55,420 nt of DNA, from assembly GCA_002068325.1 (NCBI GenBank), contig MVZH01000002.1, positions 1 to 55,420 on the forward strand, written 5' to 3'. Below the pieces are notes generated by a model. The model was not told the DNA's origin, searched no databases, and was given only the letters and a program-made list of their open reading frames with translations. Below are positions 9,065 to 49,047 of the stretch, piece after piece (position 1 is the first letter of the stretch; each line of letters begins with the position of its first letter). The translations under genes were made by a program, and so were the position numbers. Source of the stretch: Lentisphaerae bacterium ADurb.BinA184 (GTDB taxonomy: Bacteria; Verrucomicrobiota; Lentisphaeria; Oligosphaerales; MVZH01).

Positions 9065-9174
9065 GGCGGCGGCGGACGCGAGGGGCCTCTTGCCGGACGG
9101 GTGGGGCGGCGCCCCGCCGGCGGGGGCTTGCGTATGGCACGGAACGCGGCGCGCGGCTTGCCGTTGAGGCGTCG

Positions 9175-9212
9175 GCATGTTACGGTTAGGCATGTTCGTA
9201 CAGTGTAATGAC
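9175..9212 (+). promoter_or_regulatory. Conserved 38-nt upstream motif of DUF1559 paralogs (copy 2, -10-like TGTAAT)
   Basis: GCATGTTACGGTTAGGCATGTTCGTACAGTGTAATGAC is the partner of 977-1014. It ends 52 nt before the ATG at 9264. Confidence 0.35.
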
Positions 9213-9263
9213 ACGCCGGGCGGACGAGCCGGTGCGCCGCCACCGCCCAGGAGGGCCCGAACG

Positions 9264-10142
9264 ATGGATCGCCTACGTGACGGACGGCAGGGGGTGCGGG
9301 ACGTTTTCACGCTGATTGAGCTGCTGGTCGTGGTGGCGATCATCGCCATCTTGGCGGCGTTGCTGCTGCCCGCCCTCAAGAAAGGCCGGCAACTGGCCTC
9401 GCGCGCCATGTGCAGCTCCAACGAACGGCAGGTGCTGACGGCGCTGTCGCTGTACTTCGCCGACAACGACGGCCACAACCCCGGCGGCTCCGGCGACCAC
9501 CCCGCCTATCCGTATAGCTGGGGACACGAGTACATCTACTTCGTGCAACTGGCGGTCTACGTCGGGTTCGACGAGATTGCGGAGGCGCCGAAGACGGGTG
9601 GGGCCGGCGGGCAGCACGCCACCTACGTGAACCTGATCCCCAACCGCGGGCCGGTCACGCGCAGCGTGTTGTACTGCCCCACCGCGGGATGGGAGACCAG
9701 CGACACGTACCCGAACGGCGACGTCATGCCGTGGTGGCACTACTCGAGCTACGGCATCTTCACCAGCGGCTGGTCGGGGGATCCGAACAAACACTGGTGG
9801 AACCAGCCGCTCGATCCGTTCGACGACAGCGGGCGGGTAGACCGTCCGCAGGCCGCGGCATTCCTGCTGGGCACCATCCTGTCCAGCAGTCCGAACCCGT
9901 CCAACACCGGGGTGTTCGGGCATTTCAGCCGTGCCAACGTGTGGTGGCAGCTTGAGGCGGCCAACGGCTGGACCTCGTGCAGCTACACCCCCTACTACGA
10001 CACGGCTCAGAACGACCACGGCAATGCCTTGCCGGCGGGATTCCTCGACGGCCACGTGCGCATCATCACCCAGGCGGACATGCAGGACTCCAAGTATGGC
10101 CCGACCGGCGACACCCCGCTGTGGCGCGTGCTGAACTGGTGA
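9264..10142 (+). CDS. DUF1559 / prepilin-type N-terminal cleavage-methylation domain protein
   Basis: An AGGAGG Shine-Dalgarno lies 9 nt upstream. The N-terminus is [45 protein letters not shown]. Confidence 0.85.
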
Positions 10143-22073: not shown

Positions 22074-25000
22074 TCATTCCATCATTGCACGATCCTGTGG
22101 GACGCCTGTGATCTGCGACAGCTTGTCCAGTGTGGCGCCGATGACGACCTCGACCGGGCCGGAGCGGTCGCGCAGTTCGCGCAGCAGGGCCTGGGCGGCG
22201 GCGGCCAACGGCAGGGGCTCGATGCCGCGCGCCCGCATCAGGGCCTGCAACGGCGCGTGCACCATGCCGCCTGCGAGCGGGCCCCAGTTGATCGCCTTGA
22301 CCGTCACGTGCGGCCAGCGGCCGGCGAGGGCCTCGGCCAGCTTGTTGAGGCATTCGTTGGCGGCGGCGTAGTCGGCCTGGAAGGCGTTGCCGAAACGGGC
22401 CGCGGCCGATGAGAAGAACACCAGGCCGCGCAACGTCTCCGGCCGCAGGCTCCCGGCCAGGACCTGAGCCGGGATCAGTTTGCTCTCGATGACCTCGGCC
22501 AGCGCGTCGGGCGGGCGGGAGGTGAGAGGGCCGTCGTGGAGGATCCCGGCGGCATGGATGACCAGGTCCAGCCGTCCGAAGCGCGCGTACAGCGCGTCAA
22601 GGAACGCGGCCAGCCGGCCGGCGTCGCGGCCGTCCACGGCATGGTATTCGACGCGGGCCCCGGCTGCGGACAGCGCCGCGATCGTGTGTCGAATGTTACG
22701 CTGGCGGAGGAGGTTGCGGAGGATGGGTTCGACGTGCGCGGGCGGGGGGGCGGCGCCTGCGGCGCGGGCTTCGGCGATGAGGGCCTGGCGCAGGCTGGCC
22801 TCGTCCTCGATGCCGTGCGTCGCCGCGGGTTCCGGGCCGTCCGGGAGTGGGGTGCGGCCGGTGAGGATGAAGGTGGCGGGCGCCTGCGTGGCCAGCTCAG
22901 CCAGCATGGTGGCGGTGACGCCGTACGCCCCGCCGACGGCGAGCACGACGCTGTCCGCACGTACGTCGAGCCCGCGGTTGCCGGGGGTTGTCTCGGTGAG
23001 CACGGGGCGGACGAAGCGGTCCGTCCGCACCCCGGTCTCGGTTCCGGCGGCGTCGCGGGCGGCGGCGAGCAGGCCGATCAGGGTCTGCCCTGGCGGCGCG
23101 TCGGGCGCGACGTCTATGATCGCGGCTCGTGCCTCCGGCCACTCGCGGGCCAGGGACTTTGTGAAGCCCGCGGCGGCGGCCTGCGGCCAGCGGAGATCGG
23201 CGGCGCGGGAGAGGCCGAACGTGCCATCGAGGCCGGTGACGGTCAGCAGCGTGGCCGGACGGCCGGCGCGCCGCAGCTCCGGCTCGAAGACGGCGGCCAC
23301 GTTGAAGAGCGCGGCGGTCAGCTCCGTGGCCTGCCTGGCGGGCGGCGCCTCGCCGCCGGCCGGGGCGAAGACAAGGGGGAGCAGGTTGAGAAGGGTTCCG
23401 ACCGAGAACGCCGGATCGCTGCGCAGGGCCTCGGCGGCGGCGGTCAGCGAATCCCGCGAAAGGAGGTCCGCGGTCAGCCTGCGCTCGCCGACACGCCGGA
23501 ATGCCTCGCCATGGGAGAGCCGCCAGACGGGGACCGGGGCCGCACCGTCCTCGAAGCCGGGGAAGCGCGCCAGGCGCGGGGAGTCGCCGACGATCAGCAC
23601 GCCGCGCCCGTCGGCCCCGGCGATGATGGCATCCAGGGACTCGTCGCTGTCAAGCCGGACGGGCTGGGCGCTGAGCACTTGCCGTTGCACCGTGGCCGGC
23701 GGCGGGGCGGGCGAGGGCGAGAGGGCGGGGGTGTCGCGGCCGGCCGGTTTCGTCGCCTCCGGGGATGCCGGCGAGAGGGCGCGGCGGCGGTCGTAGTAGG
23801 CGACGATGTCGTTGAGGGTCTTCAGCTGCATGAAATCAACCAGGAGGTCCTCCTGCGGCCGGCCTTCGCCCAGCAGCACAGGGTGATAGGGTTTGAGCTG
23901 GGCGAACAGCTCCATCACCTTGATCGAATCAATGCCCAGCCCCGATTCGAGCGGCAGGCTGGGATCGAGCATGTCCTTCGGGTAGCCGGTGCGGGCGCTG
24001 AGCGCTTCGATCAGATCGGCGCGGAACGTCGCCGTCGGCGGCGTGGCGCCGGCGTCGGGCGTGGCGACGGGGACGGAAGGCGGCGGCGCGGTCGGGGCGG
24101 GCGCAGGCGCGGGGGCAACGGGCAACGGCGCGAGTTCCGGCGGCAGCGCGATCGCCGGCAGTTGCGGCACGGGCGCGGCCGGGAGCACGGCATCGCCGAG
24201 GACGCTGTCCAGCCCGGCCGGCGCGGCGGCTCTCGCGGGACGCCGGGAACCCGCTTCCGACCGCGCCGCGAAGTCGGCCCAGGGGACGGTGTCGGTGAGC
24301 GTGATGACGTGGCGGGTCGGGGTGGGGCGCCGGGCGGCCTCCTCGTCTTTGAGGAGCGTGGCCAGCGGCACGGGTTCGAGGCCGCGGTTGGCGAACCACG
24401 GCGACAGCTCGATCTCGGCCCCTTCGGCGACGAGCGCGGCCAGCAGCCGGGCCAGCCCGATGCGGCTGTCGGAGTCGCCGGTATCCAGCGGCAGGCAGCG
24501 GTGCGGGCGTCCGGCGAGGATCTCGTCAATCAACCGCGACAGGATGTTGCCGGGGCCGAGTTCGACGAACAGCCGCGCCCCGTCGTCATGCATGCGCTCG
24601 ATCATGGCCGCGAACGCGACGGGTTCGGTGATGTGCCGGCACAGCAGGTGCGCCATCCTGCCTGCCGACCCCTCGTACGGCGCGGCGGTGACATTGCTGT
24701 AGACCGGAATCGCGGGCCGCCCGAAGGCAAGGCCGGCCTGGAAGTCCGCCAACTGCCGCGCCGCGGGCCGCATGGCGGGACTGTGGAAGGCGCCGCTGAC
24801 GGCCAGGCGCACGCAACGTACACCCTGCGCCTCGAACCGCGCGCAGACCGCGGCCAGCCCCGCCTCCGGCCCCGAGACGACGACCTGCCGCGGCGCGTTG
24901 AAATTGGCGGCGCCGACACCGCCCCCGACCTCGGCAAGAACCGCGGCCACCGTCTCGCGGTCGGCCATGACCGCCGCCATGCCGCCCGGGATCGCGGCCG

Positions 25001-28000
25001 CCGCCGCCTGCATGACCCGGCCGCGGCGCGTGCACAGCCGGATCAGATCGTCGAAGGCCAGCACGCCCGCGGCGTGCAGCGCGGACAGCTCGCCGAAGCT
25101 GTGCCCGCCGGCCATCGCCGGGCGCAGGCCGTAACCGCGCAGGGTCTGCCAGGCCAGCGCCTCCGCCACCGCCAGCGCGGGCTGCGCGCAGTCGGCCGAC
25201 CGCAGGGTCTCGATGCGCTGCAGAATCTCCTGCGGGGTGAATCCGGCCGGAGGGTAGAGAACCGCCGACAGCGCGGTGGGAAGCTCGGTCGCGGCGGTGG
25301 CGTCGGCCGTCTCGATGAGGCGGACGGCGTCGCGGTTGCCGAGGGCGAGCTCGCGGAACATATCGATCCGCTGTGACCCCAGGCCGGGGAAGACGACCGC
25401 CACGCATGGCGGCGCGGCCAGTGCGCCCTCTCCCCAGGCGCAGCCTTCGACGCCGCCGGGATCTCCCGCGTCCAGGCGGGCGACGACCTCGGCCAGGCGG
25501 GTGCGCAGCGTCGCCACGTCCGGCGCCGTCAGGGCGAGTCGTACGGCGGCCGCCTTGCCCGAGGCGCGGCGGCGGTGCGACTCGTCAAGATGGCAGCTGG
25601 CGGCGAGGCGTTCGAGGCTGGGCAGAGCCTCGGCGGCGAGGGCGGCGTTCAGGGTTTCAAGCCGCTCCCGCAGCTCGCCCCGCGACGGCGCCTGCCAGGC
25701 GAACAGTTCGACCGGCGGCGCCGACAGGTTCGGCGGCGGCGGCTGGGCCGGGGAGGCGAACTCCTCAAGAACAAGGTGGTAGTTGGTGCCGCCGAAGCCG
25801 AAGGCGCTGACGCCGGCCCGGCGCGGGTGATCCCCGCGGCGGATCCACGGCCGCAACGCCGTGTTGATGTAGAAGTGGCTCCCTGCGGCCAGCCCGCGCG
25901 GGTTGGGGGTGCGCACGTTCACCGTCGGCGGGAGCACCTGTTGCGAGAGCGCCAGCGTGGCCTTGATCAGGCCCGCCAGGCCGGCCACCGTCTTGGTGTG
26001 CCCAAGGTTGGACTTGACCGAGCCGACCGCGCAACGCCCCGGCCCGCCCGCCGTGGCGGGGACAAACTCGTCCAGCGCCTGCAGCTCGATGCGGTCGCCG
26101 AGGCTGGTGCTGGTGGCGTGGGCCTCGATGAGCTCGACGGTGTCGGGGGCCAGGCCGGCGTCGTCGTACGCCCTCTGCAACGCCAGCTTGATGGATGCCT
26201 TGGCCGGGGCGGTCAGGCTGGCCTCGCGGCCGTCGCTGGAGAATCCCACCCCGCGGATGACGGCGTAGATGCGGTCGCCGTCGCGCACGGCGTCGTCGAG
26301 GCGTTTGAGGAGGACGGCGGCGGCGCCCTCGGCCAGCACGATGCCGTCGGCGCTCTCGTCGAACGGGCAGCTCACGTCGCGCGGGGAGAGGGCCTGGGTG
26401 CGCGAGAAGGCCGTGTAGGCGAACGGGCCCATGCCGCGGTCGACGCCGCCGACCAGGACGGCGTCGCTGGCGCCCGCCCGCAGGAGGGCCACGGCGTGCG
26501 CGAGGGCGGCCAGCGAGGAGGCGCAGGCCGCGTCAATGATGAGGTTCTCGCCGTGCAGGTCGAGCAGATTGGCGACGCGGCCGGCAGTCAGGTTGGGCAG
26601 GAAACCGGGGAAGCTGTCCTCGGTCCACTCCGGCAGGACGGCGCGGAAGGCCGCCAGGACCTGCTCACGGGCGCGCTCGCCGAGAGCCGTCTGCGACAGC
26701 AGGTGCGGCAGGCTGCTGCGGAGGCCGTAGCCGAGCCCGAGGTTGTCCTGGCCGGAATTGGTGAATACGGCCGAGACGCGGCTGCGCTCCAGGGGCCGCG
26801 AGCCGTAGCCGGCGTCTTCAAGGGCGCGCCGGGCCACCACCAGCGACAGCAGCTGCACCGTGCTGATGGCCTTGACGGCGACTGGCGGAATCCGGTACTC
26901 GACGGGATCGAAGACGACGGGGTCGAGGAAGCTGCCCTTGCGGCTGTAGATGTGTTCGGGGGCCTTGCGGTCGGGGTCATAGTAGAGGCTGGCGTCGAAC
27001 AGCTCGGCCGGGACGTCCCGGATGGCGTTGAAGCCCCGCTGGATGTTCTGCCAGTATTCGCGCGTGCCGGGTGACTGCGGGAAGAGGGCGCTCATGCCGA
27101 CGATGGCGATGGGGGCGGGTGGCGGGCGCGTCCGTGCGGCCGGGGGAGGGCGGGGCGACCGTCCCGCCCAGGCGTCAAGGCGCCCGGCCGATTCGGTGCA
27201 GAGGCCGTGATGCAGCTCGGCGAGCGTCAGCGGCGTGTCACGGAGGATCGCGGCCTGCCCGAGCATGAACAGTCCCTGGTCGCGCTGGATGTCGGGCGGG
27301 GCCGCAACCAGGGCGGCGGAGTCGTCGAGAAACCGTTGCGGCTCTTCGGCGCCCTCCTCGGCGGCGGCGCGGCGCACCCCCTTGGCGGCGAGGCGGAGCC
27401 GGCCGAGGGTGAGCTTTTCGAGGCGGAGGCGGGTTTCGCCGTCGCCGAGCCCGGCCTCGATGAGGCGTTGGCGGCTCTCATCGAACGCGTGGGCGAAGGG
27501 GGTGTCGGCGCAGCGCATTTCGTGTCCCGGGCCGGTGCACAGCAGCCGGGTACGGGTGCAGGCGAGGGCGGTCGCCTGGAACGATGCGGTCAGCGCGCCG
27601 GTCTTCACGCACTCGCGGGTGAAAAGGTATGGGGTTCCCAGCAGTAGTCCGACCTTGACCCCGCGTTCGGCCAGCGGGGCCGCCAGCACGGCCAGCATGG
27701 CGGCGGAGAGGCGGTCGTGGAGCCCGCCGGCGAAGAGGACTTCGAGGTCGGCGGCTGTGTGGTCGGGCAGCGCGGCGACGATGTCGAGGACGTGGCGCCA
27801 CAGCGGGAAGGCGAACAGGGGGCCGACATGGCCGCCGCACTCGCGGCCCTCAAAGACGAAGCGCCGGCAACCGGCGGCGAGGTGGTCGCGGAACAGCCCC
27901 GGTGTGGGCGCATGGAGGAAGGCTTTGATGCCAGCCCCCTCGAAGGCGGCGGCCTGATCGGGCCGGCCGCCGGCCAGGATGACGGCCCGCGGCTGTGCTT

Positions 28001-29189
28001 CGCACACGCATCCGGCCTGTTCGCGGTAGAGCGCGGGCGGCAGGAAGCCGAGGATGCCCGCGGCCCACGGTTGCCCGCCGACGGCCTCACGCGTGCGGGC
28101 AAACAGCTCGCGGATGCGGGCTGGCGTCAACACGCCGAGGGCAAGGCAGCTCAGCGCCCCGGCCTCGCTGACGGCGCGGGCGAACTCGGGGCAGTCGCTG
28201 ACCCGCGTCATGGGGCCCTGGACGATCGGCAGGGCCGTGCCGAGGCTGGCGGCCACGCCATGGCCCGGGGCCAGAATGCGCTGGCGCGCGGCCAGGGCCG
28301 GGAGGCGCGCCGCGGCGCCGCGGAAGCCCTCGAGAATGCCGGCGAGGCTGGCGCCTTGCCGGGCGAGGGAAGCGGCCAGCCCCATGCCTTGCCCAACCTC
28401 GAAAGGGTAGAGCGAAGCCAACGCCAGCGGCTGGAAGCCTGGCACGGCCACGCGCAGTTCCGTGCCGCGGCTGACGGTGTCGGCGAGGGCGGCGGCGGAC
28501 GGCAGGATGCGGGGGATCCACGTGCGGTAGTGGCGGTTGGAGCGGTCGTGCAGGCAGGAGGTCTCCGTCCCGTCCGCCTGCATGAAGAGCGAGCGCAGCG
28601 TGTCGGGCATCGCCATCTCACGGGCCAGCCAGAGCTCCTCGCGCAGGCAGATGCCGCATCCGGCGGCGCGGGCCGCCGCGGCGGTCTCCGGCGACCACGC
28701 ACCCTCGATCCACACCGGGGCCCTGAACCGCGGCGCCATCTGCGCCAGCACGAAGGAGGAGAGTTCCGCGTTGAAGCCGCCCGCCTCGCCCGCCTTCAGC
28801 ACCAGTCCCTCCGCCCCGGCCGCCAGGTACGCCGGCCCGTTCTCGGGAACATGGCACTCGACGAGGACACGCCCCGCGCGAGGGCGTGCCAGCCCGACGG
28901 CCCCGGCCACCGCGGCCGGCTCGGCGGCCTCCTCGCAGATGACGACGACCGGGATCCGGGCCGGCACCCCTTCGGCGGCCAGCCACTCGCCCGCCGTGGC
29001 CGCCGGCACGGCTAGCCCCCACGAGGAGTCCGGCGGCATCGGGGCGAAGCAGGCCTCCAGGGCCGTCCGTCCGGGCGGTGGCTCGGCGCCGGCTTGGGCG
29101 ATGGCGACGGCACCGCAACGGCCGGCCGCCGCCAGGGCGTAGCGGCACTCCGGCCGCAACGGTAGCATCACGATTTCGGTCTCGGTCAT
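22074..29189 (-). CDS. PKS / PUFA-synthase-like subunit A: tandem NMO-type enoyl reductase, KS, AT, single ACP, KR
   Basis: A 2371-aa ORF. All catalytic motifs are present (see the sub-features). Confidence 0.9.
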   Translation of the reverse strand: MTETEIVMLPLRPECRYALAAAGRCGAVAIAQAGAEPPPGRTALEACFAPMPPDSSWGLAVPAATAGEWLAAEGVPARIPVVVICEEAAEPAAVAGAVGLARPRAGRVLVECHVPENGPAYLAAGAEGLVLKAGEAGGFNAELSSFVLAQMAPRFRAPVWIEGAWSPETAAAARAAGCGICLREELWLAREMAMPDTLRSLFMQADGTETSCLHDRSNRHYRTWIPRILPSAAALADTVSRGTELRVAVPGFQPLALASLYPFEVGQGMGLAASLARQGASLAGILEGFRGAAARLPALAARQRILAPGHGVAASLGTALPIVQGPMTRVSDCPEFARAVSEAGALSCLALGVLTPARIRELFARTREAVGGQPWAAGILGFLPPALYREQAGCVCEAQPRAVILAGGRPDQAAAFEGAGIKAFLHAPTPGLFRDHLAAGCRRFVFEGRECGGHVGPLFAFPLWRHVLDIVAALPDHTAADLEVLFAGGLHDRLSAAMLAVLAAPLAERGVKVGLLLGTPYLFTRECVKTGALTASFQATALACTRTRLLCTGPGHEMRCADTPFAHAFDESRQRLIEAGLGDGETRLRLEKLTLGRLRLAAKGVRRAAAEEGAEEPQRFLDDSAALVAAPPDIQRDQGLFMLGQAAILRDTPLTLAELHHGLCTESAGRLDAWAGRSPRPPPAARTRPPPAPIAIVGMSALFPQSPGTREYWQNIQRGFNAIRDVPAELFDASLYYDPDRKAPEHIYSRKGSFLDPVVFDPVEYRIPPVAVKAISTVQLLSLVVARRALEDAGYGSRPLERSRVSAVFTNSGQDNLGLGYGLRSSLPHLLSQTALGERAREQVLAAFRAVLPEWTEDSFPGFLPNLTAGRVANLLDLHGENLIIDAACASSLAALAHAVALLRAGASDAVLVGGVDRGMGPFAYTAFSRTQALSPRDVSCPFDESADGIVLAEGAAAVLLKRLDDAVRDGDRIYAVIRGVGFSSDGREASLTAPAKASIKLALQRAYDDAGLAPDTVELIEAHATSTSLGDRIELQALDEFVPATAGGPGRCAVGSVKSNLGHTKTVAGLAGLIKATLALSQQVLPPTVNVRTPNPRGLAAGSHFYINTALRPWIRRGDHPRRAGVSAFGFGGTNYHLVLEEFASPAQPPPPNLSAPPVELFAWQAPSRGELRERLETLNAALAAEALPSLERLAASCHLDESHRRRASGKAAAVRLALTAPDVATLRTRLAEVVARLDAGDPGGVEGCAWGEGALAAPPCVAVVFPGLGSQRIDMFRELALGNRDAVRLIETADATAATELPTALSAVLYPPAGFTPQEILQRIETLRSADCAQPALAVAEALAWQTLRGYGLRPAMAGGHSFGELSALHAAGVLAFDDLIRLCTRRGRVMQAAAAAIPGGMAAVMADRETVAAVLAEVGGGVGAANFNAPRQVVVSGPEAGLAAVCARFEAQGVRCVRLAVSGAFHSPAMRPAARQLADFQAGLAFGRPAIPVYSNVTAAPYEGSAGRMAHLLCRHITEPVAFAAMIERMHDDGARLFVELGPGNILSRLIDEILAGRPHRCLPLDTGDSDSRIGLARLLAALVAEGAEIELSPWFANRGLEPVPLATLLKDEEAARRPTPTRHVITLTDTVPWADFAARSEAGSRRPARAAAPAGLDSVLGDAVLPAAPVPQLPAIALPPELAPLPVAPAPAPAPTAPPPSVPVATPDAGATPPTATFRADLIEALSARTGYPKDMLDPSLPLESGLGIDSIKVMELFAQLKPYHPVLLGEGRPQEDLLVDFMQLKTLNDIVAYYDRRRALSPASPEATKPAGRDTPALSPSPAPPPATVQRQVLSAQPVRLDSDESLDAIIAGADGRGVLIVGDSPRLARFPGFEDGAAPVPVWRLSHGEAFRRVGERRLTADLLSRDSLTAAAEALRSDPAFSVGTLLNLLPLVFAPAGGEAPPARQATELTAALFNVAAVFEPELRRAGRPATLLTVTGLDGTFGLSRAADLRWPQAAAAGFTKSLAREWPEARAAIIDVAPDAPPGQTLIGLLAAARDAAGTETGVRTDRFVRPVLTETTPGNRGLDVRADSVVLAVGGAYGVTATMLAELATQAPATFILTGRTPLPDGPEPAATHGIEDEASLRQALIAEARAAGAAPPPAHVEPILRNLLRQRNIRHTIAALSAAGARVEYHAVDGRDAGRLAAFLDALYARFGRLDLVIHAAGILHDGPLTSRPPDALAEVIESKLIPAQVLAGSLRPETLRGLVFFSSAAARFGNAFQADYAAANECLNKLAEALAGRWPHVTVKAINWGPLAGGMVHAPLQALMRARGIEPLPLAAAAQALLRELRDRSGPVEVVIGATLDKLSQITGVPQDRAMME
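22140..23672 (-). other. Ketoreductase domain (structural plus catalytic subdomains)
   Basis: VVLAVGGAYGVTATMLAELA is the Rossmann motif. FSSAAARFGNAFQADYAAANECL carries the catalytic Tyr in YAAAN. Confidence 0.75.
23790..24032 (-). other. Single acyl carrier protein domain
   Basis: LESGLGIDSIKVMELF carries Ser1755 (codon checked at 23925-23927). An Ala/Pro-rich linker precedes it. Only one such motif occurs in the protein. Confidence 0.85.
24510..25406 (-). other. Acyltransferase domain (active)
   Basis: VVFPGLGSQ is present. GGHSFGELSALHAAG carries Ser1364 (AGC codon checked at 25098-25100). VSGAFHSPAM is also present. Confidence 0.85.
25755..27113 (-). other. Ketosynthase domain (active)
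   Basis: IAIVGMSALFPQSPGTREYWQNI is the KS N-terminus. IIDAACASSLAAL carries Cys889 (TGC codon checked at 26523-26525). EAHATSTSLGD and GSVKSNLGHTKTVAG supply the two His residues. Confidence 0.85.
27360..29189 (-). other. Tandem nitronate-monooxygenase-type (PfaD-like) enoyl-reductase region; first copy degenerate
   Basis: The second copy has ALPIVQGPMTRVSD and FEGRECGGHVGP, which are PfaD / trans-ER hallmarks. The first copy has LKAGEAGGFNAELSSFVL, an EAGGH-like motif with His replaced by Phe. Confidence 0.6.
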
Positions 29190-29441: not shown

Positions 29442-30227
29442 TCAGTTGACTTCCTTGTCGAGCATGGTCCAGCTGGGGAAGGACCAGTAGTATTGGCAGG
29501 GCCAGCCGAGGTAGTAGTTCGGCCAGGCGTCGGGGCTGGTGGGATAGGTGAAGCGGCGGAAGTTGCGTTGCCAGACGCCGGAGCCGTCGTGGCGGATGGC
29601 ATTGCCGCCGACCTTGTGGGCCCAGTAGTTGGGGTTGACGACCCAGGCTTCGGTCTCAATGGCGAAGGTTCCGGGGTAGGTTCCGCCCCAGTTCGTGCCG
29701 AAGCTGGCGTCGTCGGCCAGCAGGGTGGCGGTGTTGTAGACATCGAGCACGCGCACGGGCCGCGAGACGGTCTGGTTGCAGCCGGCGAAGTCGCTGTTGC
29801 TGTTCCATCGGTAGTTGTAGTGGGTCCAGCCGTACATGTGAATGCCGAAGCCGCGTCCGGCGGGGACGCTCTTCTTGGCCGGGCAGCGCAGGTTGCGGGT
29901 GGTGATGTAGCCCAGGCTGTGGGCGACGCCCCAGCCGTCGAGCTCGCCGTCGGCGGAGAACTCGGCGAACTGCCGTCCGACCCACGGCAGGTAGTCGTTC
30001 TGCTGGGCGGTGGGCGGCTCGCCGTCGTAATCGGTCGCGTAGTTCATCATGCCGGCGTGGATCTGGCGGAGGTTGGACAGGCAGCTGACGGCCTTGGCCA
30101 ACTCGCGGCTGCGCGAGAGGGCCGGCAGCAGCAGCGCCGCCAGGATGGCGATGATCGCGATGACGACAAGGAGCTCGATCAGCGTGAAGGGGGCCGAGTC
30201 CCGTCGCCGATGAAGGGTGTGCGCCAT
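29442..30227 (-). CDS. DUF1559 / prepilin-type N-terminal cleavage-methylation domain protein
   Basis: The N-terminus is [56 protein letters not shown]. The gene lies directly upstream of PKS subunit A and is co-directional with it. Confidence 0.85.
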
Positions 30228-30405
30228 GGCAGGCTACTATCCGCCGGGATGCCCGCCGTGTCAAGCCGCCCGCCCCGGGCCCTTTGCGCCGGGGACGGAT
30301 TGCAAACAGGTGTTCGTCGGCTTAACTTATCTGGATCATCGGCTTTGCGAAACCCGCCGTAGGGGCTTTGGGCTATGGGCGACCTTTGGATGTGCAGTAG
30401 TTGCT

Positions 30406-30430
30406 TGAGGCTCTTGCAGAACCCCCGCGG
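30406..30430 (+). repeat. Dispersed repeat TGAGGCTCTTGCAGAACCCCCGCGG (copy 2)
   Basis: See 29268-29291. This copy lies inside the 5' extension of the listed TolC-like ORF (30375..). Confidence 0.55.
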
Positions 30431-30449
30431 ACGACAACGGCCTCGTGCG

Positions 30450-32165
30450 ATGGAGGGCGGACCTCCGTGTCCGCCAGGTCATACGCGAAGACCCGGTCTG
30501 ACGCGGACGAACCCGGACGACACGGAGGTCGTCCCTCCAGCCCGGCAGACGGCAATCCTGGGCGAGGCCGATGGAAGCCGGGGGGGCGTCCCAGCCACTC
30601 ACGCCTGGGTTCTGCAAGCGGCTTGCTTGGTTTGCCTGGCACTGGCCGTGAGCCTGACCGTCCCGCCGGCGGCGGTCGCGGACGAGCCGCCGGCGCCCCT
30701 GCCGGCGCAGGACCTGGGCCTGCGCGACTACCTGCAACAGGTGGTTGACCGCAACCTGGGCGTGATCGGGCAGCGCCTCGAACACCAGGCGCGGGTCTGG
30801 CAGGTGCGGCGGGAATGGGCCGCGTTCGAGCCGGAACTCGTCACCTCGGCCGAGCACCGGCGCACGGAGCGCGAAAACAACACCGAGCAGGCGCTGAACC
30901 AGAGCTCGTCGCTGTTCGCCGAGAGGCGCGACGGCCTCAAGTCCGGCGTCGAAGGGCTGCTGCCGATGGGCACCCAGTACCGCGTCGGCGTCACCTGGGA
31001 CCGGATCGCCAACAACCTGACCCGAACCACCACGGCCGACCGCTGGGAGGACGAGTACCAAGCCTTCACCGGCATCAGCCTGACGCAGCCTCTGCTACGG
31101 AACTTCGGGCCGCAGGCGACCCTGGCGCGCATTCATATGGCGGCGGCCGACGCCGAGGTCGCACGCCAGGAATTGCGCAAGCAGCTCATGGCCCTGGTCG
31201 GGCGTGCCGAGGCCGCATACTGGGACACGGCCTACGCCCAGGAGGATCTGGCCACGCGGCTGGAGTCGGCCGGCCGTGCCGAACGCATCCTGCGCGACAA
31301 CCGCGAGCGCGTGCAGGCGGGCAAGATGTCGGAGCTGGAAATCTTTGAGGCGGAGGCCGGGCTGGCGCAGCGCGAGGCCCTCGCCCGCGAGGCCGAGCAG
31401 AACCTGGCCGCGGCGGTCAACCAGCTGCGCACCTTCCTCTCGGCCAGCTGCGCCGAACAGCCGGCCCCGATCCGCGCCACCGACACGCCGGAGGAATCGC
31501 CGACCGACGGCGACCGCGCCGCCAGCCTCACCCGCGCCATGACTCTCCACCCCGACTACCTGGCGCAGCGGCAGACGATCGAACAGGAGAACGTCCGCCT
31601 GGCCTTTGCCCGCAACCAGCGCTGGCCGCAGCTCGACTTGGTGGCCAGCTACGGCCTCAACGGACTGGGCGACACCACGGGCGGCGCCGCCGCCGACATC
31701 AGCAGCTCGGACTTCGAGGCCTGGTCGGTGGCGCTCGAACTGCGCGTGCCCCTGGGCGGCGGGCAGCGGGCGCGCAGCGAACTGGAGACCGCCCGCCTGC
31801 GCAAGCAGAAGGCGATCCTCGAACTGAAGTCCATCGAGGTCGAGCTGGCCAACGCCCTCGATACGGTGCGAGGGCGCCTGCAGGCCGTGCGCGGCCTGAT
31901 CGCCGGCTACGGCAAGGTCGCCGAGTTCCGTGAAAAGACCCTGGCGGCCGAGATGGCGCGGCTGGACGGCGGCAAGAGCGACAGCCGCAAGGTGCTGCAG
32001 GCCGAGCAGGACCTCGTCGAGGCCCGCCTTATGAAGCTGAAAAGCCTGGTGGACCTGCAGAAGGCCCGCATTGATCTCGAACTGACCGAGGGGGCCATCC
32101 TCGAGAAGCTCGGGTTCGAACCCGTGCTGGACGACGACGCGGGCGGAGGCCCTGCATCCCTGTGA
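30450..32165 (+). CDS. TolC-family outer membrane efflux protein
   Basis: The protein has two repeated halves with typical OEP patterns (LGLRDYLQQVVDRNLGV..., LTRAMTLHPDYLAQRQTIEQENVRLAFARNQRWPQLDLVASYGLNG). The start is uncertain (ATG 30375 or 30450). The hydrophobic signal-like segment AACLVCLALAVSL begins about 55 codons after 30450. Confidence 0.75.
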   Translation: MEGGPPCPPGHTRRPGLTRTNPDDTEVVPPARQTAILGEADGSRGGVPATHAWVLQAACLVCLALAVSLTVPPAAVADEPPAPLPAQDLGLRDYLQQVVDRNLGVIGQRLEHQARVWQVRREWAAFEPELVTSAEHRRTERENNTEQALNQSSSLFAERRDGLKSGVEGLLPMGTQYRVGVTWDRIANNLTRTTTADRWEDEYQAFTGISLTQPLLRNFGPQATLARIHMAAADAEVARQELRKQLMALVGRAEAAYWDTAYAQEDLATRLESAGRAERILRDNRERVQAGKMSELEIFEAEAGLAQREALAREAEQNLAAAVNQLRTFLSASCAEQPAPIRATDTPEESPTDGDRAASLTRAMTLHPDYLAQRQTIEQENVRLAFARNQRWPQLDLVASYGLNGLGDTTGGAAADISSSDFEAWSVALELRVPLGGGQRARSELETARLRKQKAILELKSIEVELANALDTVRGRLQAVRGLIAGYGKVAEFREKTLAAEMARLDGGKSDSRKVLQAEQDLVEARLMKLKSLVDLQKARIDLELTEGAILEKLGFEPVLDDDAGGGPASL

Positions 32166-32329
32166 CGCCCGGCCGCCCGCGCACCCGTCCGTGCGGACGA
32201 TGGCGCGGTCGGTGGCCGTTTGTCTGCACCGTTTCCGAATGGTCGTGGGCGGCCGCCGCGGGGAGTTGCCGGCCGGCGACGTCTCCCGGCACTGCCAACC
32301 CCCGACCCTGTACTGGAGCGAGGACGCCA

Positions 32330-33154
32330 GTGAAGGCAAGCGTGGTTCGATCTGTTTCGGCGGGCGCGCTGGCCCTGGTCTGCGCCGTCCCGGCCTTGGC
32401 TGAGACTGTGATCGGGGTGACGCGCCCGTTCCGCGACGCGACCCTCAGCGCGGCGGTTCCCGGCGCCGTGGTCGAGGTGACGGTCAAGCCGGGGGCGGCG
32501 GTGAAGAAGGGCGACGTGCTGGTCCGGCTCGACAGCCGCCTCGAAGAGCTCGAAGTGGCGCGGCGGCGGCAGCAGGCCGAAAGCCAGGTCGAGATCGAAG
32601 CCGCGAAGGCGCGGGTGGCGACGCTCAAGACCGATCTCGACGGCACCCGCCGGCTGTTCGAGACGACCCAGTCGGTCAGCAAGGACGACTTGGACAAGAA
32701 GGAGCTGGAGTTCCGGCTGGCGGAGGCCGAGCTGAGCCAGCTCGCCGTCGCCGAGGAGCGCGAACGGATCGAGTGCGAAATGGCCGAGGCGCAGCTGGAG
32801 AAGCGGGCCGTGAGGGCGCCGTTCGACGGCATTGTGACGCGGGTCGAGATCGAGGAGGGCGAGGTCTGCGGGCCGGAGCGGCCGTTGCTGCGGCTGGTGG
32901 ATGTCACCAGTGTCTACTTCACCGCCAGCCTCGATGCCCGGCTGACGCCGGGGCTGAGCCTCGGCCAGGAGCTGGCCGTGCGCGTCGAGAATGACGGCGA
33001 CCCGCTCGGGCGCGTCGGGACGGTCGAGTTCATCTCGCCGGTGGTGGATGCCGCCAGCGGCCTGCAGGACATCCGGGTGCGCTTTGCCAACCCCGACGGG
33101 CGCGTGCGCCCCGGGCTGTCGGCCACCGTCGAACTGGGAGCCACGCCGCAATGA
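32330..33154 (+). CDS. HlyD-family membrane fusion (periplasmic adaptor) protein
   Basis: An internal GTG start follows GGAGCGAGG. The signal-like segment is VKASVVRSVSAGALALVCAVPALA. The lipoyl-like hairpins are VVEVTVKPGAAVKKGDVLVRLD and VRAPFDGIVTRVEIEEGEV, with a coiled coil between them. Confidence 0.8.
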   Translation: MKASVVRSVSAGALALVCAVPALAETVIGVTRPFRDATLSAAVPGAVVEVTVKPGAAVKKGDVLVRLDSRLEELEVARRRQQAESQVEIEAAKARVATLKTDLDGTRRLFETTQSVSKDDLDKKELEFRLAEAELSQLAVAEERERIECEMAEAQLEKRAVRAPFDGIVTRVEIEEGEVCGPERPLLRLVDVTSVYFTASLDARLTPGLSLGQELAVRVENDGDPLGRVGTVEFISPVVDAASGLQDIRVRFANPDGRVRPGLSATVELGATPQ

Positions 33155-35025
33155 GAAGCGCGGTTGCCTTCACGGGGACGCGGCTGGCGGAGGCCGCGGC
33201 GCGGCTGACCGAGCTGGAGTCGTTTGCCGGGCCGCCGGGGGAGTTCTGGGCCGCCTGCCTCGAGACCCTTGCGCAGGTTGCCGGCGCCCGGCTGGCGGTG
33301 CTGATCCGGCGGGTGTCCGGCGCCGAGGGCGCGGCTGAGTGGCGGCCCCTCACCCAGTGGTCGCCGGGGCCGGTGAAGCCGGCCGTGGCCCGCGCGCTCT
33401 CCGCCGCCCTGCCGGGACTCGGCGAGCAGGCCCTGGCCGCCGGCGAAACCTGCACGCCCCTGACCGGCGACGACATCGGCCCCGAGGCCGGAATGGCGGC
33501 CGCCGTACGGCTCCTGCGGAATCAGCCCGACGAGAGCGCGGTGGGTGTCTTCCTCCTCGACGCGGCCAGCCCCGACGCGGCCCAGGAACCGCTCGCCCGG
33601 CTGCGCCTGGCGGCCGGCCTGCCGGAAGCCTACCAGAACCGGCGCCTCCTCGCCCAGGCGCGGCGCGACGTCAGCCACTTCTCCTCCGTGCTCGACCTCA
33701 TGGTCCTGCTCAACGGCCAGACCCGTTTCATGGCGGCCTGCATGCTGCTGTGCAACGAATTCGCCAGCCGCTTCGCCGCCGACCGCGTCTGCCTGGGCTG
33801 GAAGAAGGGCGACTACGTGCGCCTGCGCGCCATGAGCCACGCCGAGAAGTTCGACAAGAAAATGGCGGCGGTGCGCGCGGTCGAAGAGGCTATGGAGGAA
33901 GCCCTCGACCAGGACGAGGAGATCGCCTGGCCGCCGGCCGCCGAGGTGACGGCCATCGTGCGCGACCACGAACAGTACGCGCGGTCGCAGGGCGTGGCCA
34001 ACCTGTGCACCGTGCCCTTGCGGGCCGAGGGCAGGCCGGTGGCGGCCATCACGCTGGAACGTGCGGCACAGGCTTTCACCGAGGACGAAACCGCCCACTT
34101 GCGCCTGTATGCCGACCAGGCCGTGCGGCGGCTCACCGACCTCGAAAAACACGACCGCTGGTTCGGGGCGCGCTGGCTGGCCGCGGCCCGGCGCGGGCTG
34201 GGACGGCTGATCGGGGTCGAACATACCTGGGCCAAGCTCGGGGCGTTGGCCGGCGCCGTGGCGCTGGCCGTGCTGCTCTTCGGCCGCGCCTCCTACCGCA
34301 TCCAAGGCAGCTTCATGCTGCAGCCGGCCGACGTCGTCTACCTGCCGGCGCCCTTTGACGGCTACATCGGTGAGGTCAGGGTCCGGGTCGGCGATGAGGT
34401 CGCCGAGGGCGCGGTCCTGCTGGCGCTGGACACCCGCGAGCTGCTGCTCGAACAGGCGGCGGCGGTGGCCGATCTGCAGCGCTACACCCGCGAGACCGAG
34501 AAGGCGCGCGCCGCCGATGCCTTGGCCGACATGCGGGTGGCGGCGGCGCTGGCCGAACAGGCACGGGTGCGCCTCGAACAGGTCCGCTACCGGCTTGGAC
34601 AGGCCAATGTGACCGCGCCCTTCGCCGGCATCGTGGTCGAGGGTGACATGCGCGAGCGCATCGGCGCGCCGGTCAAGCAGGGCGACGTGCTGTTCCGCGT
34701 CGCCCGGCTCGAAGACCTCTATGTGGCCGTGGACGTCGAGGAGGCGGACCTGCCGCGCCTCGACGCGACGGCCGCCGGGCAGGTTGCCTTTCTCAGCCGT
34801 CCGGGCCTGAAGTTCCCGGTGCAGGTCGAGCGGATCGAGCCGGCCGCGCAGGCCAAGTCCGGCAAGAATGTGTTCACGGTGCGGTGCGCATTGAAGGGCG
34901 GGGTCGAGGAGTGGTTCCGCCCTGGCATGAGCGGGGTGTGCAAGCTGAACGCGGGCCGGCGCAGCCTGCTGTGGCTGTTCACGCACAAGACGGTGGATTT
35001 CCTGCGTCTGCGGCTATGGTGGTGA
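33151..35025 (+). CDS. GAF-like sensor domain(s) fused to a transmembrane HlyD-family membrane fusion protein
   Basis: The ATGA overlaps the previous gene. The N-terminal half of about 330 aa is cytoplasmic with a GAF-like pattern (...CLGWKKGDYVRLRAMSH...LCTVPLRAEGRPVAAITLER). The TM segment is LGALAGAVALAVLLFG. The HlyD motifs are YIGEVRVRVGDEVAEGAVLLALD and VTAPFAGIVVEGD. Confidence 0.75.
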   Translation: MRSAVAFTGTRLAEAAARLTELESFAGPPGEFWAACLETLAQVAGARLAVLIRRVSGAEGAAEWRPLTQWSPGPVKPAVARALSAALPGLGEQALAAGETCTPLTGDDIGPEAGMAAAVRLLRNQPDESAVGVFLLDAASPDAAQEPLARLRLAAGLPEAYQNRRLLAQARRDVSHFSSVLDLMVLLNGQTRFMAACMLLCNEFASRFAADRVCLGWKKGDYVRLRAMSHAEKFDKKMAAVRAVEEAMEEALDQDEEIAWPPAAEVTAIVRDHEQYARSQGVANLCTVPLRAEGRPVAAITLERAAQAFTEDETAHLRLYADQAVRRLTDLEKHDRWFGARWLAAARRGLGRLIGVEHTWAKLGALAGAVALAVLLFGRASYRIQGSFMLQPADVVYLPAPFDGYIGEVRVRVGDEVAEGAVLLALDTRELLLEQAAAVADLQRYTRETEKARAADALADMRVAAALAEQARVRLEQVRYRLGQANVTAPFAGIVVEGDMRERIGAPVKQGDVLFRVARLEDLYVAVDVEEADLPRLDATAAGQVAFLSRPGLKFPVQVERIEPAAQAKSGKNVFTVRCALKGGVEEWFRPGMSGVCKLNAGRRSLLWLFTHKTVDFLRLRLWW

Positions 35026-35031
35026 GGGCGG

Positions 35032-37188
35032 ATGCCTGACGCGGAGAAGACATTCAGCGAGTCCTGGTACCGGGTGGCCGGGCAGCGTCTGTGCCTGCGG
35101 CCGCAGGTGCAGATGCAGCGGCAGCATTTCCGCGGCCGGCGCTGGTACGTGGTGCGCGACCCGTACAGCAACCAGTTCTTCCGCCTGCATCCGGCCGCCC
35201 ACGCCTTCGTCGCGCGGCTGCGCCGCGACCGCACTGTCGAGGAGGTGTGGAACGAGTGCCTGGCGCTGCACCCCGCCGAGGCCCCCGGCCAGCAGGAGGT
35301 CATCAACCTGCTGGCCCAGCTGTTCTTCGCCAACCTGCTGCAGTGCGAGAACCCGGCCGACAGCGCCGCCCTCTTCGAGCGCTACCGCCGGCGGCGCGGG
35401 CAGGAGGTCCGTTCCCGCATCGTCAACATCATGTTCTCGCGCTTCCCGCTCCTCGACCCGGACCGGTTCCTGCTCCGCGCCCTGCCCCTGGTGCGCCCGC
35501 TGATCGGCCCGCTGGGGGCGGTGCTGTGGCTGGCGGTCGTCGGCTGGGCGGTGAAGGTGGCCGTCGAGCATTTCCCCGACCTCTCGCGGCAGGGCGACGC
35601 CATCCTCTCCCCCGCCAACCTGCCCCTGCTCTATCTCGCGCTGGTGGTGATCAAGGCCCTGCACGAGTTTGGCCATGCCTTCGTCTGCCGGCGCTTCGGC
35701 GGCGAGGTGCACGAGATGGGCATCACCCTGCTGATCTTCACCCCCTTGCCCTACGTGGATGCCAGCTCGGCCTGGGCCTTCCGCAGCCGCTGGCGACGCG
35801 TGGTTGTCGGCGCCTCCGGGATGATGACCGAGCTGTTCTTCGCCGCCGGCGCCACCTTCGTCTGGGCCGGCACCGGAACCGGAACCCTCCACAGCCTGGC
35901 CTACAACATCATGTTCATCGCCTCGGTCTCGACCGTCCTCTTCAACGCCAACCCCCTCCTGCGCTGGGACGGCTACTACATCCTCTCCGACCTCCTCGAC
36001 ATCCCCAACCTCCACTCCCAGGCCGCCCAGCAGCTGCGCCACCTGCTCGACCATTACGCCTTCGGCGTGCGCGACTCGCGGTCGCCCGCCAACACGCGCC
36101 GCGAGGCGTTCTGGCTGACCGTCTTCGGCATCCTCAGCCAAGTCTACCGCGCGGTGGTCTTCGTCGGCGTCATCTTCTTCGTCGCCCAGCGTTTCCTGCT
36201 GGCCGGGATCGTGATGGCCGTGCTGTGTTTCGTCTTCTGGGTGTTGCGCGCGGTCGGCACCGCGGTGCACTACCTGGCGGCCAACCCGCGGCTGGAGCGG
36301 ACGCGGCCGCGGGCCATCGCCGTCTCGGTGGCGTTTGTCGCCGGCGTGCTGTTCCTTCTCGAGGCCCTGCCCTACCCGGTCCGTTTCCGCGCGCCGGGGA
36401 TCGTGCAGGCCGAGGAGCAGGCCTTTGTCGTCAACGAAACGGCCGGCTTCCTGCAGCGACCGCTGGCCGGTTCCGGCATCCGGGTCGAGGCCGGCCAGCC
36501 GCTCGCCGAGCTGGTCTCGCCAGACCTCGATTTCGAGACCCGCCTTGTCCACGCCCAGCTCGAACAGGCCCAGGCCTTGCGGCGCAAGGCGCTGGACGAG
36601 GGGGCGTCCGACCTGCGGCCCATTGACAGCCACATCGCGGCGGTGCAGGCCCAGGTCGAACAGCTCGAACGCCGCCGCGCCAGCCTGGTGCCGCGGGCCC
36701 CGCACCGCGGCCTCTGGATCGCGCCGAACCTCGAAGACTTCCAGCAGGCCTGGCTGGGGAAGGGAACCGCCCTCGGGCAGGTGATCAACCCGGAGACGTT
36801 CTTCTTCCTCGCCGTGGTCTCCCAGCGCGACGCGGCCCGGCTCTTTGCCGAGCCCCCGCGGGCGGTCGCCGTGCGCCTGCGCGGGCAGGCGGAGACCGCC
36901 CTTGACATCCGCCAGGTCATGGTCATTCCCGCGCAGCAGGACCGTCTGCCCTCGGCGGCCCTCGGCTGGCTGGGCGGCGGCGAGGTCGCCGTCGACACCC
37001 AGGACAGCCAGGGGACGCGCGCCGCCGAACCCTTCTTCGAAGTGCGCCTCAAGCTGGACGCCGACCCCGGCATCCCGGTCTTCCACGGCCGTTCCGGCCA
37101 GGCGCGTTTCGAGTTCCAGCCCGAGCCCCTGCTCGAACAGGGCTGGCGCCGTCTCCGCCAGACCCTGCAGCGGCGCTTCCGGCTGTAG
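35032..37188 (+). CDS. Site-2-protease family (peptidase M50) membrane metalloprotease fused to a C-terminal HlyD-like domain
   Basis: HEFGH occurs at 35662-35676 inside a polytopic membrane region. The C-terminal 280 aa carry a coiled coil and a beta-barrel-like HlyD pattern (EAGQPLAELVSPDLDFE...APHRGLWIAPN). The N-terminal 100 aa are soluble (see findings). Confidence 0.8.
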   Translation: MPDAEKTFSESWYRVAGQRLCLRPQVQMQRQHFRGRRWYVVRDPYSNQFFRLHPAAHAFVARLRRDRTVEEVWNECLALHPAEAPGQQEVINLLAQLFFANLLQCENPADSAALFERYRRRRGQEVRSRIVNIMFSRFPLLDPDRFLLRALPLVRPLIGPLGAVLWLAVVGWAVKVAVEHFPDLSRQGDAILSPANLPLLYLALVVIKALHEFGHAFVCRRFGGEVHEMGITLLIFTPLPYVDASSAWAFRSRWRRVVVGASGMMTELFFAAGATFVWAGTGTGTLHSLAYNIMFIASVSTVLFNANPLLRWDGYYILSDLLDIPNLHSQAAQQLRHLLDHYAFGVRDSRSPANTRREAFWLTVFGILSQVYRAVVFVGVIFFVAQRFLLAGIVMAVLCFVFWVLRAVGTAVHYLAANPRLERTRPRAIAVSVAFVAGVLFLLEALPYPVRFRAPGIVQAEEQAFVVNETAGFLQRPLAGSGIRVEAGQPLAELVSPDLDFETRLVHAQLEQAQALRRKALDEGASDLRPIDSHIAAVQAQVEQLERRRASLVPRAPHRGLWIAPNLEDFQQAWLGKGTALGQVINPETFFFLAVVSQRDAARLFAEPPRAVAVRLRGQAETALDIRQVMVIPAQQDRLPSAALGWLGGGEVAVDTQDSQGTRAAEPFFEVRLKLDADPGIPVFHGRSGQARFEFQPEPLLEQGWRRLRQTLQRRFRL

Positions 37189-37750
37189 CTCACAAGGTGC
37201 CACTCCAGAGAGACGATGCCGGGTTCGCACCCCCCGACTGCCGGGTGGCCGGTCGCCCCATGGCGGGGGCACATGGCGGCCGCTTCAGATTTCGTTTCTC
37301 GCCTGCGATGGCGGCGCCACGGCATACGCCTCCCGGGAAGGCCCCGGCTGCCACGTGAACCCCGAGTGTCCGGAGCCAACATTCCGCAGGGCATGCCCAT
37401 GGGGGGAATCGCGGCATCCCTCGTCTGCCTGGCCCTGACGCCGGCCGTTCTCGCCGACACCTTCACCCTCACCCGCAGCCCTGGCCGGAACGTGGTCTCG
37501 TTGCTCATCGCCGCGGACGCCCGAGCTGCCGGGCGGCACCCGTGCGCGTGAACGCGTACAGGGCCGCGCACGCCGGACGCAGGGAGGACCCGGCCGACGC
37601 TTCTGTCGTACACCCCCCGTTCCCCCGTTCCCCGCAGTGGCATTCACGGCGGCGCGCGGGTATAGTACCCGGTTTGCACGGTCTCCGCCGTTGGCGCGAA
37701 CCCGGTTGCCGTGGGCTCGGCCAACCACACCAGAAGGGATATGACCCACT

Positions 37751-46111: not shown

Positions 46112-46389
46112 GAACGGATCTCCTCCTTTTCTGTTTCGGACCCTTGCCGTACGTGCGGGGCCATCATGCCCACTGCCAGCCGCCCATCCCCTGCCGCACC
46201 GTGCGCTCTCCCGCGCCTAACACTGGCAAGGGCAACGTCCAGAACTATACAGAGCGAACCGCCCGGAAGCAAGCGCCCGCACCGCCCAACCGCCTGACGC
46301 GGTCAGGCGGCGGGCTTGCGTCGGCGGCCGATGACCGAGTATATTCCCGGACGAGAGCGCCGAGGGTTCCTGCTCTCCGGAGGTCTGCC

Positions 46390-48027: not shown

Positions 48028-48042
48028 GCGCGAGGCGCGGTC

Positions 48043-49035: not shown

Positions 49036-49047
49036 GGCGTCCCGCCC

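Follow-up and report, generated by a model that had tools for sequence, protein, structure and literature searches.

A TolC, adaptor and site-2-protease operon of a Lentisphaerae bacterium as the likely envelope part of a conserved, SecA-linked module resembling type I secretion

Type I secretion systems cross the bacterial envelope in one step, and the peptidase-containing exporters among them couple removal of the leader to export. In these systems, as represented by colicin V CvaAB-TolC and HlyBD-TolC, and in the tripartite pumps, a periplasmic adaptor, or membrane fusion protein (MFP), and a TolC-type duct are combined with an ABC, RND or MFS transporter, and these three classes are the only energizers named in a 2021 Chemical Reviews survey of tripartite systems (PMC8277102). 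Kamneva, Poudel and Ward (PLoS One 2015; PMC4452313) described, by comparative genomics, a gene set in which a secondary SecA_DEAD protein that lacks the wing-scaffold domain is encoded together with Peptidase_M50/HlyD, GAF/HlyD and HlyD/biotin-lipoyl proteins, an outer membrane channel (OEP) being a further member in some cases. For this set, they proposed a type-I-like secretion route in which SecA_DEAD would act as the ATPase and the inner-membrane component would be the M50 protein, and they reported horizontal spread and, in some genomes, location of the components at separate sites (PMC4452313). Methylobacterium extorquens AM1 (META1p2399-2402) is among the carriers that they name. Here we analyze a locus of this kind that lies in a 55,420-nucleotide stretch of DNA (hereafter, the window; ~70% G+C), positions 1 to 55,420 of contig MVZH01000002.1 from Lentisphaerae bacterium ADurb.BinA184 (assembly GCA_002068325.1). 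An earlier note on this DNA, made from the sequence alone, had viewed four genes of the window as an envelope machine without an ATPase for which no functional description was known; as the above shows, the gene set had in fact been described from genome comparison. We consider it reasonably probable that the four genes supply the membrane and periplasmic components of a conserved module of five genes that resembles type I secretion and consists of a TolC-like channel, an MFP, a GAF-MFP fusion, an RRE-M50-MFP fusion and a shortened SecA-like ATPase, the last of these being probably encoded separately in this organism.

The four genes of the window are:

30375..32165, plus strand: TolC-family outer membrane channel (OEP); Pfam OEP PF02321, E 3.6e-31, two repeats; TIGR01844, E 2e-27; G+C content at third codon positions (GC3) 0.88.
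32330..33154, plus strand: short periplasmic adaptor (MFP), 274 amino acids from the called start; the longest open reading frame (ORF) begins at 32162.
33151..35025, plus strand: GAF-MFP fusion, 624 amino acids; GAF, E 1.8e-7; HlyD_D23, 69 bits; hydropathy.
35032..37188, plus strand: M50-MFP protein, a putative RRE-M50-MFP triple fusion, 718 amino acids; Peptidase_M50, 30.1 bits, above the cutoff of 27.2.

These are four consecutive high-GC3 frames (30375-32165, 32162-33154, 33151-35025 and 35032-37188; GC3 0.88-0.94), and their tight, co-directional packing, as well as the assignment of the products to OEP, MFP, GAF-MFP and M50-MFP, both asserted in the earlier note, were borne out by GC3 and by the Pfam and NCBIfam searches. 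The MFP and GAF-MFP genes overlap by 4 nucleotides (33151-33154), and 6 nucleotides (35026-35031) separate the GAF-MFP and M50-MFP genes. An overlap of the OEP and MFP genes exists for the longest ORF only; with the MFP start at 32330, which is the choice of gene callers on independent assemblies (L090 and L091), there is a 164-nucleotide gap instead.

Databases contain more than 6,950 relatives of the M50-MFP protein, often named "putative peptide zinc metalloprotease" by JGI; the nearest is 58% identical, and the protein is 53-58% identical over its full length to members encoded next to SecA-like genes. In a scan of one genome per species, relatives were present in at least 590 species-level genomes from more than 10 phyla; the carriers among the matches listed belong to Verrucomicrobiota, Lentisphaerae, Kiritimatiellae, Elusimicrobia, Desulfobacterota, Nitrospirota, Spirochaetota, Chlorobi, Fibrobacter, Planctomycetota, and Beta- and Gammaproteobacteria. 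The module described in 2015 has the same protein set, of which the window encodes the M50-HlyD protein, the GAF-HlyD protein next to it, the separate adaptor and the optional OEP, and it occurs in the same phyla (Planctomycetes, Verrucomicrobia, Proteobacteria, Nitrospirae, as well as Chlorobi), whereas the distribution found here is wider and includes additional phyla.

The genomic context of these relatives revealed a strict partnership. In most of the neighborhoods with Pfam annotation, the gene order is OEP, MFP, GAF-MFP, M50-MFP, the exceptions being contig L089, which starts at the M50-MFP gene, and L087, in which extra genes are interspersed; in every one of these neighborhoods, the M50-MFP gene is followed by a gene for a protein of ~660 amino acids that contains SecA_DEAD, SecA_PP_bind and P-loop_SecA domains. 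A SecA-like gene is located directly 3' of the M50-MFP gene in 69 of the 71 loci for which at least 1.5 kb of downstream sequence is present; apart from the window, it is missing downstream also in L050 and L070. The GAF-MFP gene is located directly 5' of the M50-MFP gene in 63 of 67 loci, and among the 35 long loci, an OEP is present in 29 and a short MFP in 30. The reverse survey gave the same picture: among the matches listed in metagenomes, where SecA-like genes were found by their own DEAVTPLI motif, the M50-MFP gene lies directly 5' of 75 of the 78 SecA-like genes (including four cases that fell under the automatic thresholds and were added by hand). An ORF resembling an ABC ATPase, as judged by a simple regular expression for the Walker A, signature and Walker B motifs, occurs in only 3 of 86 loci (a rough count), and no ABC, RND or MFS transporter adjoins the module in the seven related loci with precomputed Pfam annotation, to which the check for RND and MFS pumps was confined. 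The earlier note had named an ABC or RND pump located beyond the window as the finding that would overturn its reading; a putative energizing partner does accompany the family, probably beyond the window in this organism, and it is SecA-like rather than ABC or RND.

Several loci depart from the common layout. In the Planctomycetota loci and in loci labeled Anaerolineales, a conserved protein of ~137 amino acids is encoded between the short MFP and GAF-MFP genes (~1455-1934 in L066, L071 and L072; 7662-8036 in L078); this protein is absent from the window and may be a lineage-specific sixth component. In L051, L055 and L057 (~1-7150; Burkholderiaceae and other Betaproteobacteria), proteins of ~1,830 and ~570 amino acids, candidates for lineage-specific cargo, are encoded just 5' of the GAF-MFP gene. 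The gene order is different here: in the two of these loci with sufficient length, L051 and L055, the OEP and MFP genes are 3' of the SecA-like gene. In one verrucomicrobial-type genome (L002, 14647-22082; L003, 14173-19421), the SecA-like gene is directly followed by a giant gene for a protein of more than 4,800 amino acids with HemolysinCabind (RTX-type) repeats; this arrangement is not found in the other loci, and its product is a possible cargo but not a general one. The Lentisphaerae-type locus L087 contains an inserted PIN-domain toxin-antitoxin pair and an AP-endonuclease-family gene (5740-6428 and 9169-9981), and all five module genes are intact despite these insertions. The highest best-segment identity among the matches listed in species-representative genomes (64%) belongs to the 1,985-bp contig L073 (CAYSDO010000555.1), which is binned as 'uncultured Bifidobacterium sp.', an implausible host for a TolC-linked module and probably a binning error.

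The SecA-like proteins of the family retain the Walker A, DEAD, TGT and NMAGRGTD motifs along with the preprotein-binding (cross-linking) domain. They align to residues 18-605 only of Bacillus subtilis SecA, and hence have neither the helical wing domain nor the two-helix finger, and no C-terminal tail. Like SecA2 of Gram-positive bacteria and mycobacteria, structures of which (6sxh, 4uaq) are among the matches of the SecA-like protein, this would be a second SecA paralogue, specialized to serve only some of the substrates. The module protein is, however, shorter than SecA2, ending before the wing domain and the finger, and whereas SecA2 partners with SecY or SecY2, the partners of the SecA-like protein are M50-MFP, GAF-MFP and TolC.

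At the position that the SecA-like ATPase gene occupies in the relatives, the window contains the following feature:

37189..37750, no strand: spacer of 562 bp; the trigger factor gene (tig) starts at 37751.

No SecA-like gene or remnant was detected in the 55-kb window by tblastn with two SecA-like queries, and the possibility that the spacer is a SecA pseudogene was rejected on the same empty searches. The gene order of the window recurs in two independent assemblies at 99.5-99.8% identity, and L090 is identical to the window across the operon genes. The junction of the M50-MFP gene, the spacer and tig is the same in JGI contig Ga0116241_10005374 (99.8%) and in a contig of the NCBI metagenome-assembled genome (MAG) GCA_022703545.1 (99.5%), and hence is not an assembly artefact. 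The spacer contains an ORF (37399-37551, plus strand) for 50 amino acids with a signal-peptide-like start, MGGIAASLVCLALTPAVLA, which gene calling on the JGI contig also picked out; the ORF lacks a Pfam match and a counterpart in the other loci, and either it has arisen by chance in this GC-rich sequence or it might encode a small peptide that is secreted. As the earlier note had observed, no ABC, RND or MFS efflux pump adjoins the operon: in a Pfam scan of the window, the sole MFS domain belongs to an MFS-acyltransferase-AMP-ligase fusion at 50259-53750.

The lack of a motor gene in 55 kb does not imply a genome without a motor. The module described in 2015 has the SecA-like gene in its neighborhood, whereas for the window locus, the candidate is on another contig. 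This candidate, P0121, is the 666-amino-acid product of an orphan SecA-like gene, with all ATPase motifs intact. Its contig, Ga0116241_10040646, comes from JGI metagenome 3300010429, as does the window's own contig, Ga0116241_10005374. The contig is not among the listed matches of the motif scan and was reached by way of L112, from activated sludge, and L190 (Ga0116153_10021278). These two contigs are 100% identical to each other, have a G+C content of 70.7%, and carry the orphan SecA-like gene preceded by a fumarylacetoacetate-hydrolase gene. The tetranucleotide correlation between the P0121 contig and the window is 0.985, which ranks first among 48 GC-matched control loci and is at the upper end of the range obtained when chunks of the window are compared with the rest of it (median 0.976). 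The two nearest SecA-like relatives of P0121 come from L087 and L089, the same loci that encode the two nearest relatives of the window M50-MFP protein, and across 125 loci, the identity profiles of P0121 and the window M50-MFP mirror each other (rho 0.84, rank 3 of 126 against decoys). Given the shared metagenome, the composition, the nearest relatives and the mirrored profiles, it is very likely that the organism encodes a SecA-like motor at a second locus, most probably that of P0121 next to the fumarylacetoacetate-hydrolase gene. The window would then be a rare split locus and probably not a motor-less machine. The interpretation given in the earlier note is thus partly supported, and its statement that there is no ATPase fails for the family and probably for the organism.

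In the M50-MFP protein of the window, the HEFGH motif, precisely where the earlier note had placed it (35662-35676, amino acids 211-215), is inside a predicted helix (194-221) and is followed by a second site-2-protease motif, NPLLRWDG (35950-35973, amino acids 307-314). Both motifs are invariant across 22 homologues, and they conform to the definition of the M50 family, with HExxH in a transmembrane helix and a downstream NxxPxxxxDG that provides the third zinc ligand. In an AlphaFold model built with 22 homologues (mean pLDDT 77), a domain of strands and helices at the N-terminus is followed by seven long helices and by a C-terminal region of beta-strands with an alpha-hairpin (amino acids 447-718); the seven helices fit a topology with the N-terminus in the cytoplasm, seven transmembrane helices and the C-terminus in the periplasm. 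The third HlyD-like domain that the earlier note had assigned to this periplasmic region (36370-37185) is sub-threshold in Pfam (HlyD_D23, 19 bits) but is upheld structurally: in the AlphaFold model, amino acids 447-718 matched MexA, AcrA, MacA, ZneB and CusB in a Foldseek search of the PDB (E ~2e-12, target-normalized TM-score ~0.6).

For amino acids 23-404, which encompass the N-terminal domain and the HExxH core, the best NCBIfam matches are intramembrane leader proteases of ribosomally synthesized and post-translationally modified peptides (RiPPs), namely NF041824 daptide_HExxH (E 2e-49; 168.6 bits, below the equivalog cutoff of 300) and NF058609 YydH/LiaK (E 1e-8; 35.1 bits, below the equivalog cutoff of 225). 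By these comparisons, the M50-MFP protein belongs to a clade related to daptide_HExxH and not to the same family. The RiPP proteases join a peptide-recognition domain to a site-2-protease core, as the M50-MFP protein probably does; their match does not extend to the C-terminal MFP region of the window protein. The protein shares HExxH and NxxPxxxxDG in transmembrane helices with RseP, RasP and SpoIVFB but differs from them in that Pfam finds no PDZ or CBS domain and in the possession of the predicted N-terminal RRE-like domain and the C-terminal periplasmic MFP domain. The MFP and the TolC-type duct are common to the module and to type I secretion, where CvaAB-type exporters carry a cytoplasmic C39 cysteine peptidase rather than an intramembrane zinc M50 protease fused to an MFP, and where there is a single MFP rather than three different MFP-domain proteins and an ABC transporter rather than a SecA-like motor.

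The N-terminal domain (35089-35331) is assigned as PqqD/RRE-like from Pfam and fold comparison. RREs of the PqqD type have a winged-helix fold with three or four strands ahead of three helices; a separate model of the domain (pLDDT 82) contains three strands (27-33, 36-42, 49-52) and then three helices (54-61, 69-79, 87-99). PqqD is its sole Pfam match in the window protein (E 0.006; 17.4 bits, below the cutoff of 23.4); it is also the leading and only recurrent family among the homologues, matched in 13 of 15 with a best E of 2.9e-5, while two other families gave single weak matches. The E-values of the Foldseek matches are weak overall (0.02-0.1). The top-ranked chain is GdmN (7vzu; E 0.02), and the cyanobactin oxidase ThcOx is also among the top matches; the lasso-peptide RRE-leader complexes of TbiB1 (5v1u, 5v1v), with E of only 0.03-0.07, are the matches that span most of a small target domain (target-normalized TM-score 0.67-0.70). 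A PDB sequence search with the profile of the domain returned only noise (E > 1). With moderate confidence, we regard the M50-MFP protein as a triple fusion in which a site-2 protease is flanked by an RRE-like domain for peptide recognition and by an MFP. The predicted RRE-like domain points to a leader-bearing peptide or protein as the substrate; together with the kinship to the RiPP M50 proteases, it strengthens the idea, put forward in the earlier note, that cleavage of a peptide or protein would be coupled to its release.

The remaining components have the features expected from their family assignments. In the OEP protein, the longest ORF of which encodes 596 amino acids (with an alternative ATG at 30450), hydropathy analysis shows a signal-peptide-like hydrophobic segment at amino acids 78-96. 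The short MFP matches HlyD_D23 (76 bits), HlyD_3, Biotin_lipoyl_2 and TIGR01730 (146 bits, above the cutoff of 94.9), and its N-terminus is a signal or anchor segment. In the GAF-MFP protein, a cytoplasmic N-terminal half of ~355 amino acids, with the GAF domain at amino acids 200-326 (33748-34128) according to Pfam, is followed by a single transmembrane helix predicted from hydropathy (~360-378; 34228-34284) and by a periplasmic MFP domain.

From these components we infer the following mechanism. In the cytoplasm, the M50-MFP protein would use its PqqD-like RRE domain to bind the leader of a ribosomally made peptide or protein, and the SecA-like motor, with both nucleotide-binding domains and the preprotein-binding domain, would supply ATP-driven unfolding and threading. 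The site-2-protease core would cleave the substrate at the inner membrane, and the three different MFP domains may form a periplasmic sleeve that docks the TolC-like channel, such that the product would be released outside. The second adaptor, through its GAF half in the cytoplasm, could regulate the machine or dock the motor; in the earlier note, this GAF domain was the putative gate, acting by binding a small molecule.

Several observations weigh against this interpretation. We know of no site-2 protease that serves as a translocation channel, and the two-helix finger with which canonical SecA acts at SecY is absent from the SecA-like protein. The RRE assignment is sub-threshold for the window protein (PqqD, 17.4 versus 23.4 bits; Foldseek E 0.02-0.07). 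No conserved substrate gene was found beside the module by all-against-all clustering of the neighboring ORFs from ~86 loci, which recovered only generic two-component genes (11 loci) and some lineage-specific inserts. The earlier note had suggested looking around the M50-HlyD fusion for conserved partners and small precursor genes, and the outcome is divided: the SecA-like partner is conserved, whereas the neighbor survey revealed no precursor-peptide or modification genes beside the module and no recurrent peptide among the small ORFs 3' of the SecA-like genes. The tie between P0121 and the genome of the window is circumstantial, through the same sample, composition and matching phylogeny, and all records of P0121 are from JGI metagenomes, none being from the NCBI MAG in which the locus is present.

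An alternative is that the M50-MFP protein functions in regulated intramembrane proteolysis, cleaving a regulator bound to the membrane (an anti-sigma factor, for example) in the manner of RseP, with the MFP and TolC components acting as an envelope sensor or scaffold and not as a secretion duct. The protein has the catalytic motifs of site-2 proteases, a family whose best-known members signal in this way, the GAF domain suggests sensing, and two-component genes are found near the module in the 11 loci mentioned above. Such a function is nevertheless unlikely: the neighbor survey detected no conserved sigma or anti-sigma gene beside the module, RiPP leader peptidases, rather than RseP, are its nearest kin in M50, and the strict partnership with a preprotein-binding ATPase, along with three MFP paralogues and TolC, is hard to explain by signaling alone.

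Another possibility, and quite an improbable one, is that the four proteins form a complete, ATPase-free envelope machine, with release driven by proteolysis, membrane potential or diffusion. It agrees with the content of the window, which has no SecA-like, ABC, RND or MFS pump gene, with the identity of the junction to tig in three assemblies, and with the integrity of the M50-MFP protein, which retains 137 of the 141 family-invariant columns. It is at odds with the coupling of the M50-MFP and ATPase genes in ~96-97% of the loci in both directions and with the lineage-matched orphan SecA-like gene of the same composition in the same metagenome; furthermore, no TolC-dependent system without an energized partner is known to us. 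Finally, a decaying, non-functional remnant that lost the ATPase by rearrangement might be suspected from the absence of the SecA-like gene at its canonical position, the unusually long spacer found there, and the similar absence in L050 and L070, but it is very unlikely given that the four genes are full length and free of frameshifts, that the M50-MFP protein, although only 58% identical to its nearest relative, retains all but four of the family-invariant columns, which argues against decay, the four changes being conservative, and that the candidate partner P0121 is intact with all ATPase motifs. All three of these explanations are less well supported than the five-gene module with a separately encoded ATPase.

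The surroundings of the operon differ from those of the related loci. Upstream, the window contains:

29442-30227, minus strand: DUF1559/N-methyl pseudopilin-like gene; Pfam matches to DUF1559 and N_methyl.
30228..30374, no strand: divergent intergenic region between the DUF1559 gene and the operon, read from the sequence as 147 bp, or 222 bp with the OEP start at 30450.

Genes of the DUF1559/N-methyl pseudopilin-like type are typical of Planctomycetes. On the 5' side, the DUF1559 gene is followed by two polyketide-synthase (PKS) genes, and on the 3' side, the operon is followed by the genes for trigger factor, ClpP and ClpX. The link of the operon to the divergent DUF1559 and PKS genes is probably incidental because the module has different neighbors in all the other genomes. 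The two PKS-like genes, which also resemble polyunsaturated-fatty-acid synthases (11757-16220 and 22074-29189, both on the minus strand), comprise one with KS-AT-DH and 4'-phosphopantetheinyl transferase domains and one with NMO/enoyl-reductase-like, KS, AT, ACP and KR domains; a PKS next to the TolC operon is an arrangement not conserved elsewhere. Between them, a ResIII/DEAD helicase-type gene (16563-19229, minus strand) overlaps an N6/N4 DNA methylase gene (19226-20890, minus strand), a pair with the look of a type III-like restriction-modification system that is inserted in a region of lower G+C content (0.62 at 20-22 kb). Farther downstream of the operon, a co-directional group on the plus strand (46144-53750) encodes a protein with a B-box zinc finger and a PQQ_2 beta-propeller, a protein of 330 amino acids without a Pfam match, a rhomboid protease, and the MFS-acyltransferase-AMP-ligase fusion, which has 1163 amino acids and resembles lysophospholipid transporter/acyl-ACP synthetase fusions.

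In the literature searched, we found no experimental follow-up to the 2015 description (PMC4452313) and nothing relevant on M50-HlyD fusions, on SecA-like proteins with HlyD, or on daptides with M50; a preprint on giant genes mentions SecA_DEAD domains in a different context. Beyond that description, which reports no N-terminal PqqD/RRE-like domain, the present analysis adds this domain of the M50-MFP protein as a new detail, together with the much wider distribution of the module. The module is an interesting target, and the window locus itself adds little further. Tentatively, it can be suggested that the module constitutes a distinct, unnamed class of trans-envelope secretion systems in which an RRE-site-2-protease-MFP protein and a truncated SecA-like motor replace the ABC exporter, combining leader recognition, intramembrane cleavage, and export through three adaptors and TolC. 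If this is the case, a SecA-type motor and an intramembrane protease would join the ABC, RND and MFS transporters as energizers of tripartite systems, and the RRE-like domain would provide a concrete handle for finding the substrates.

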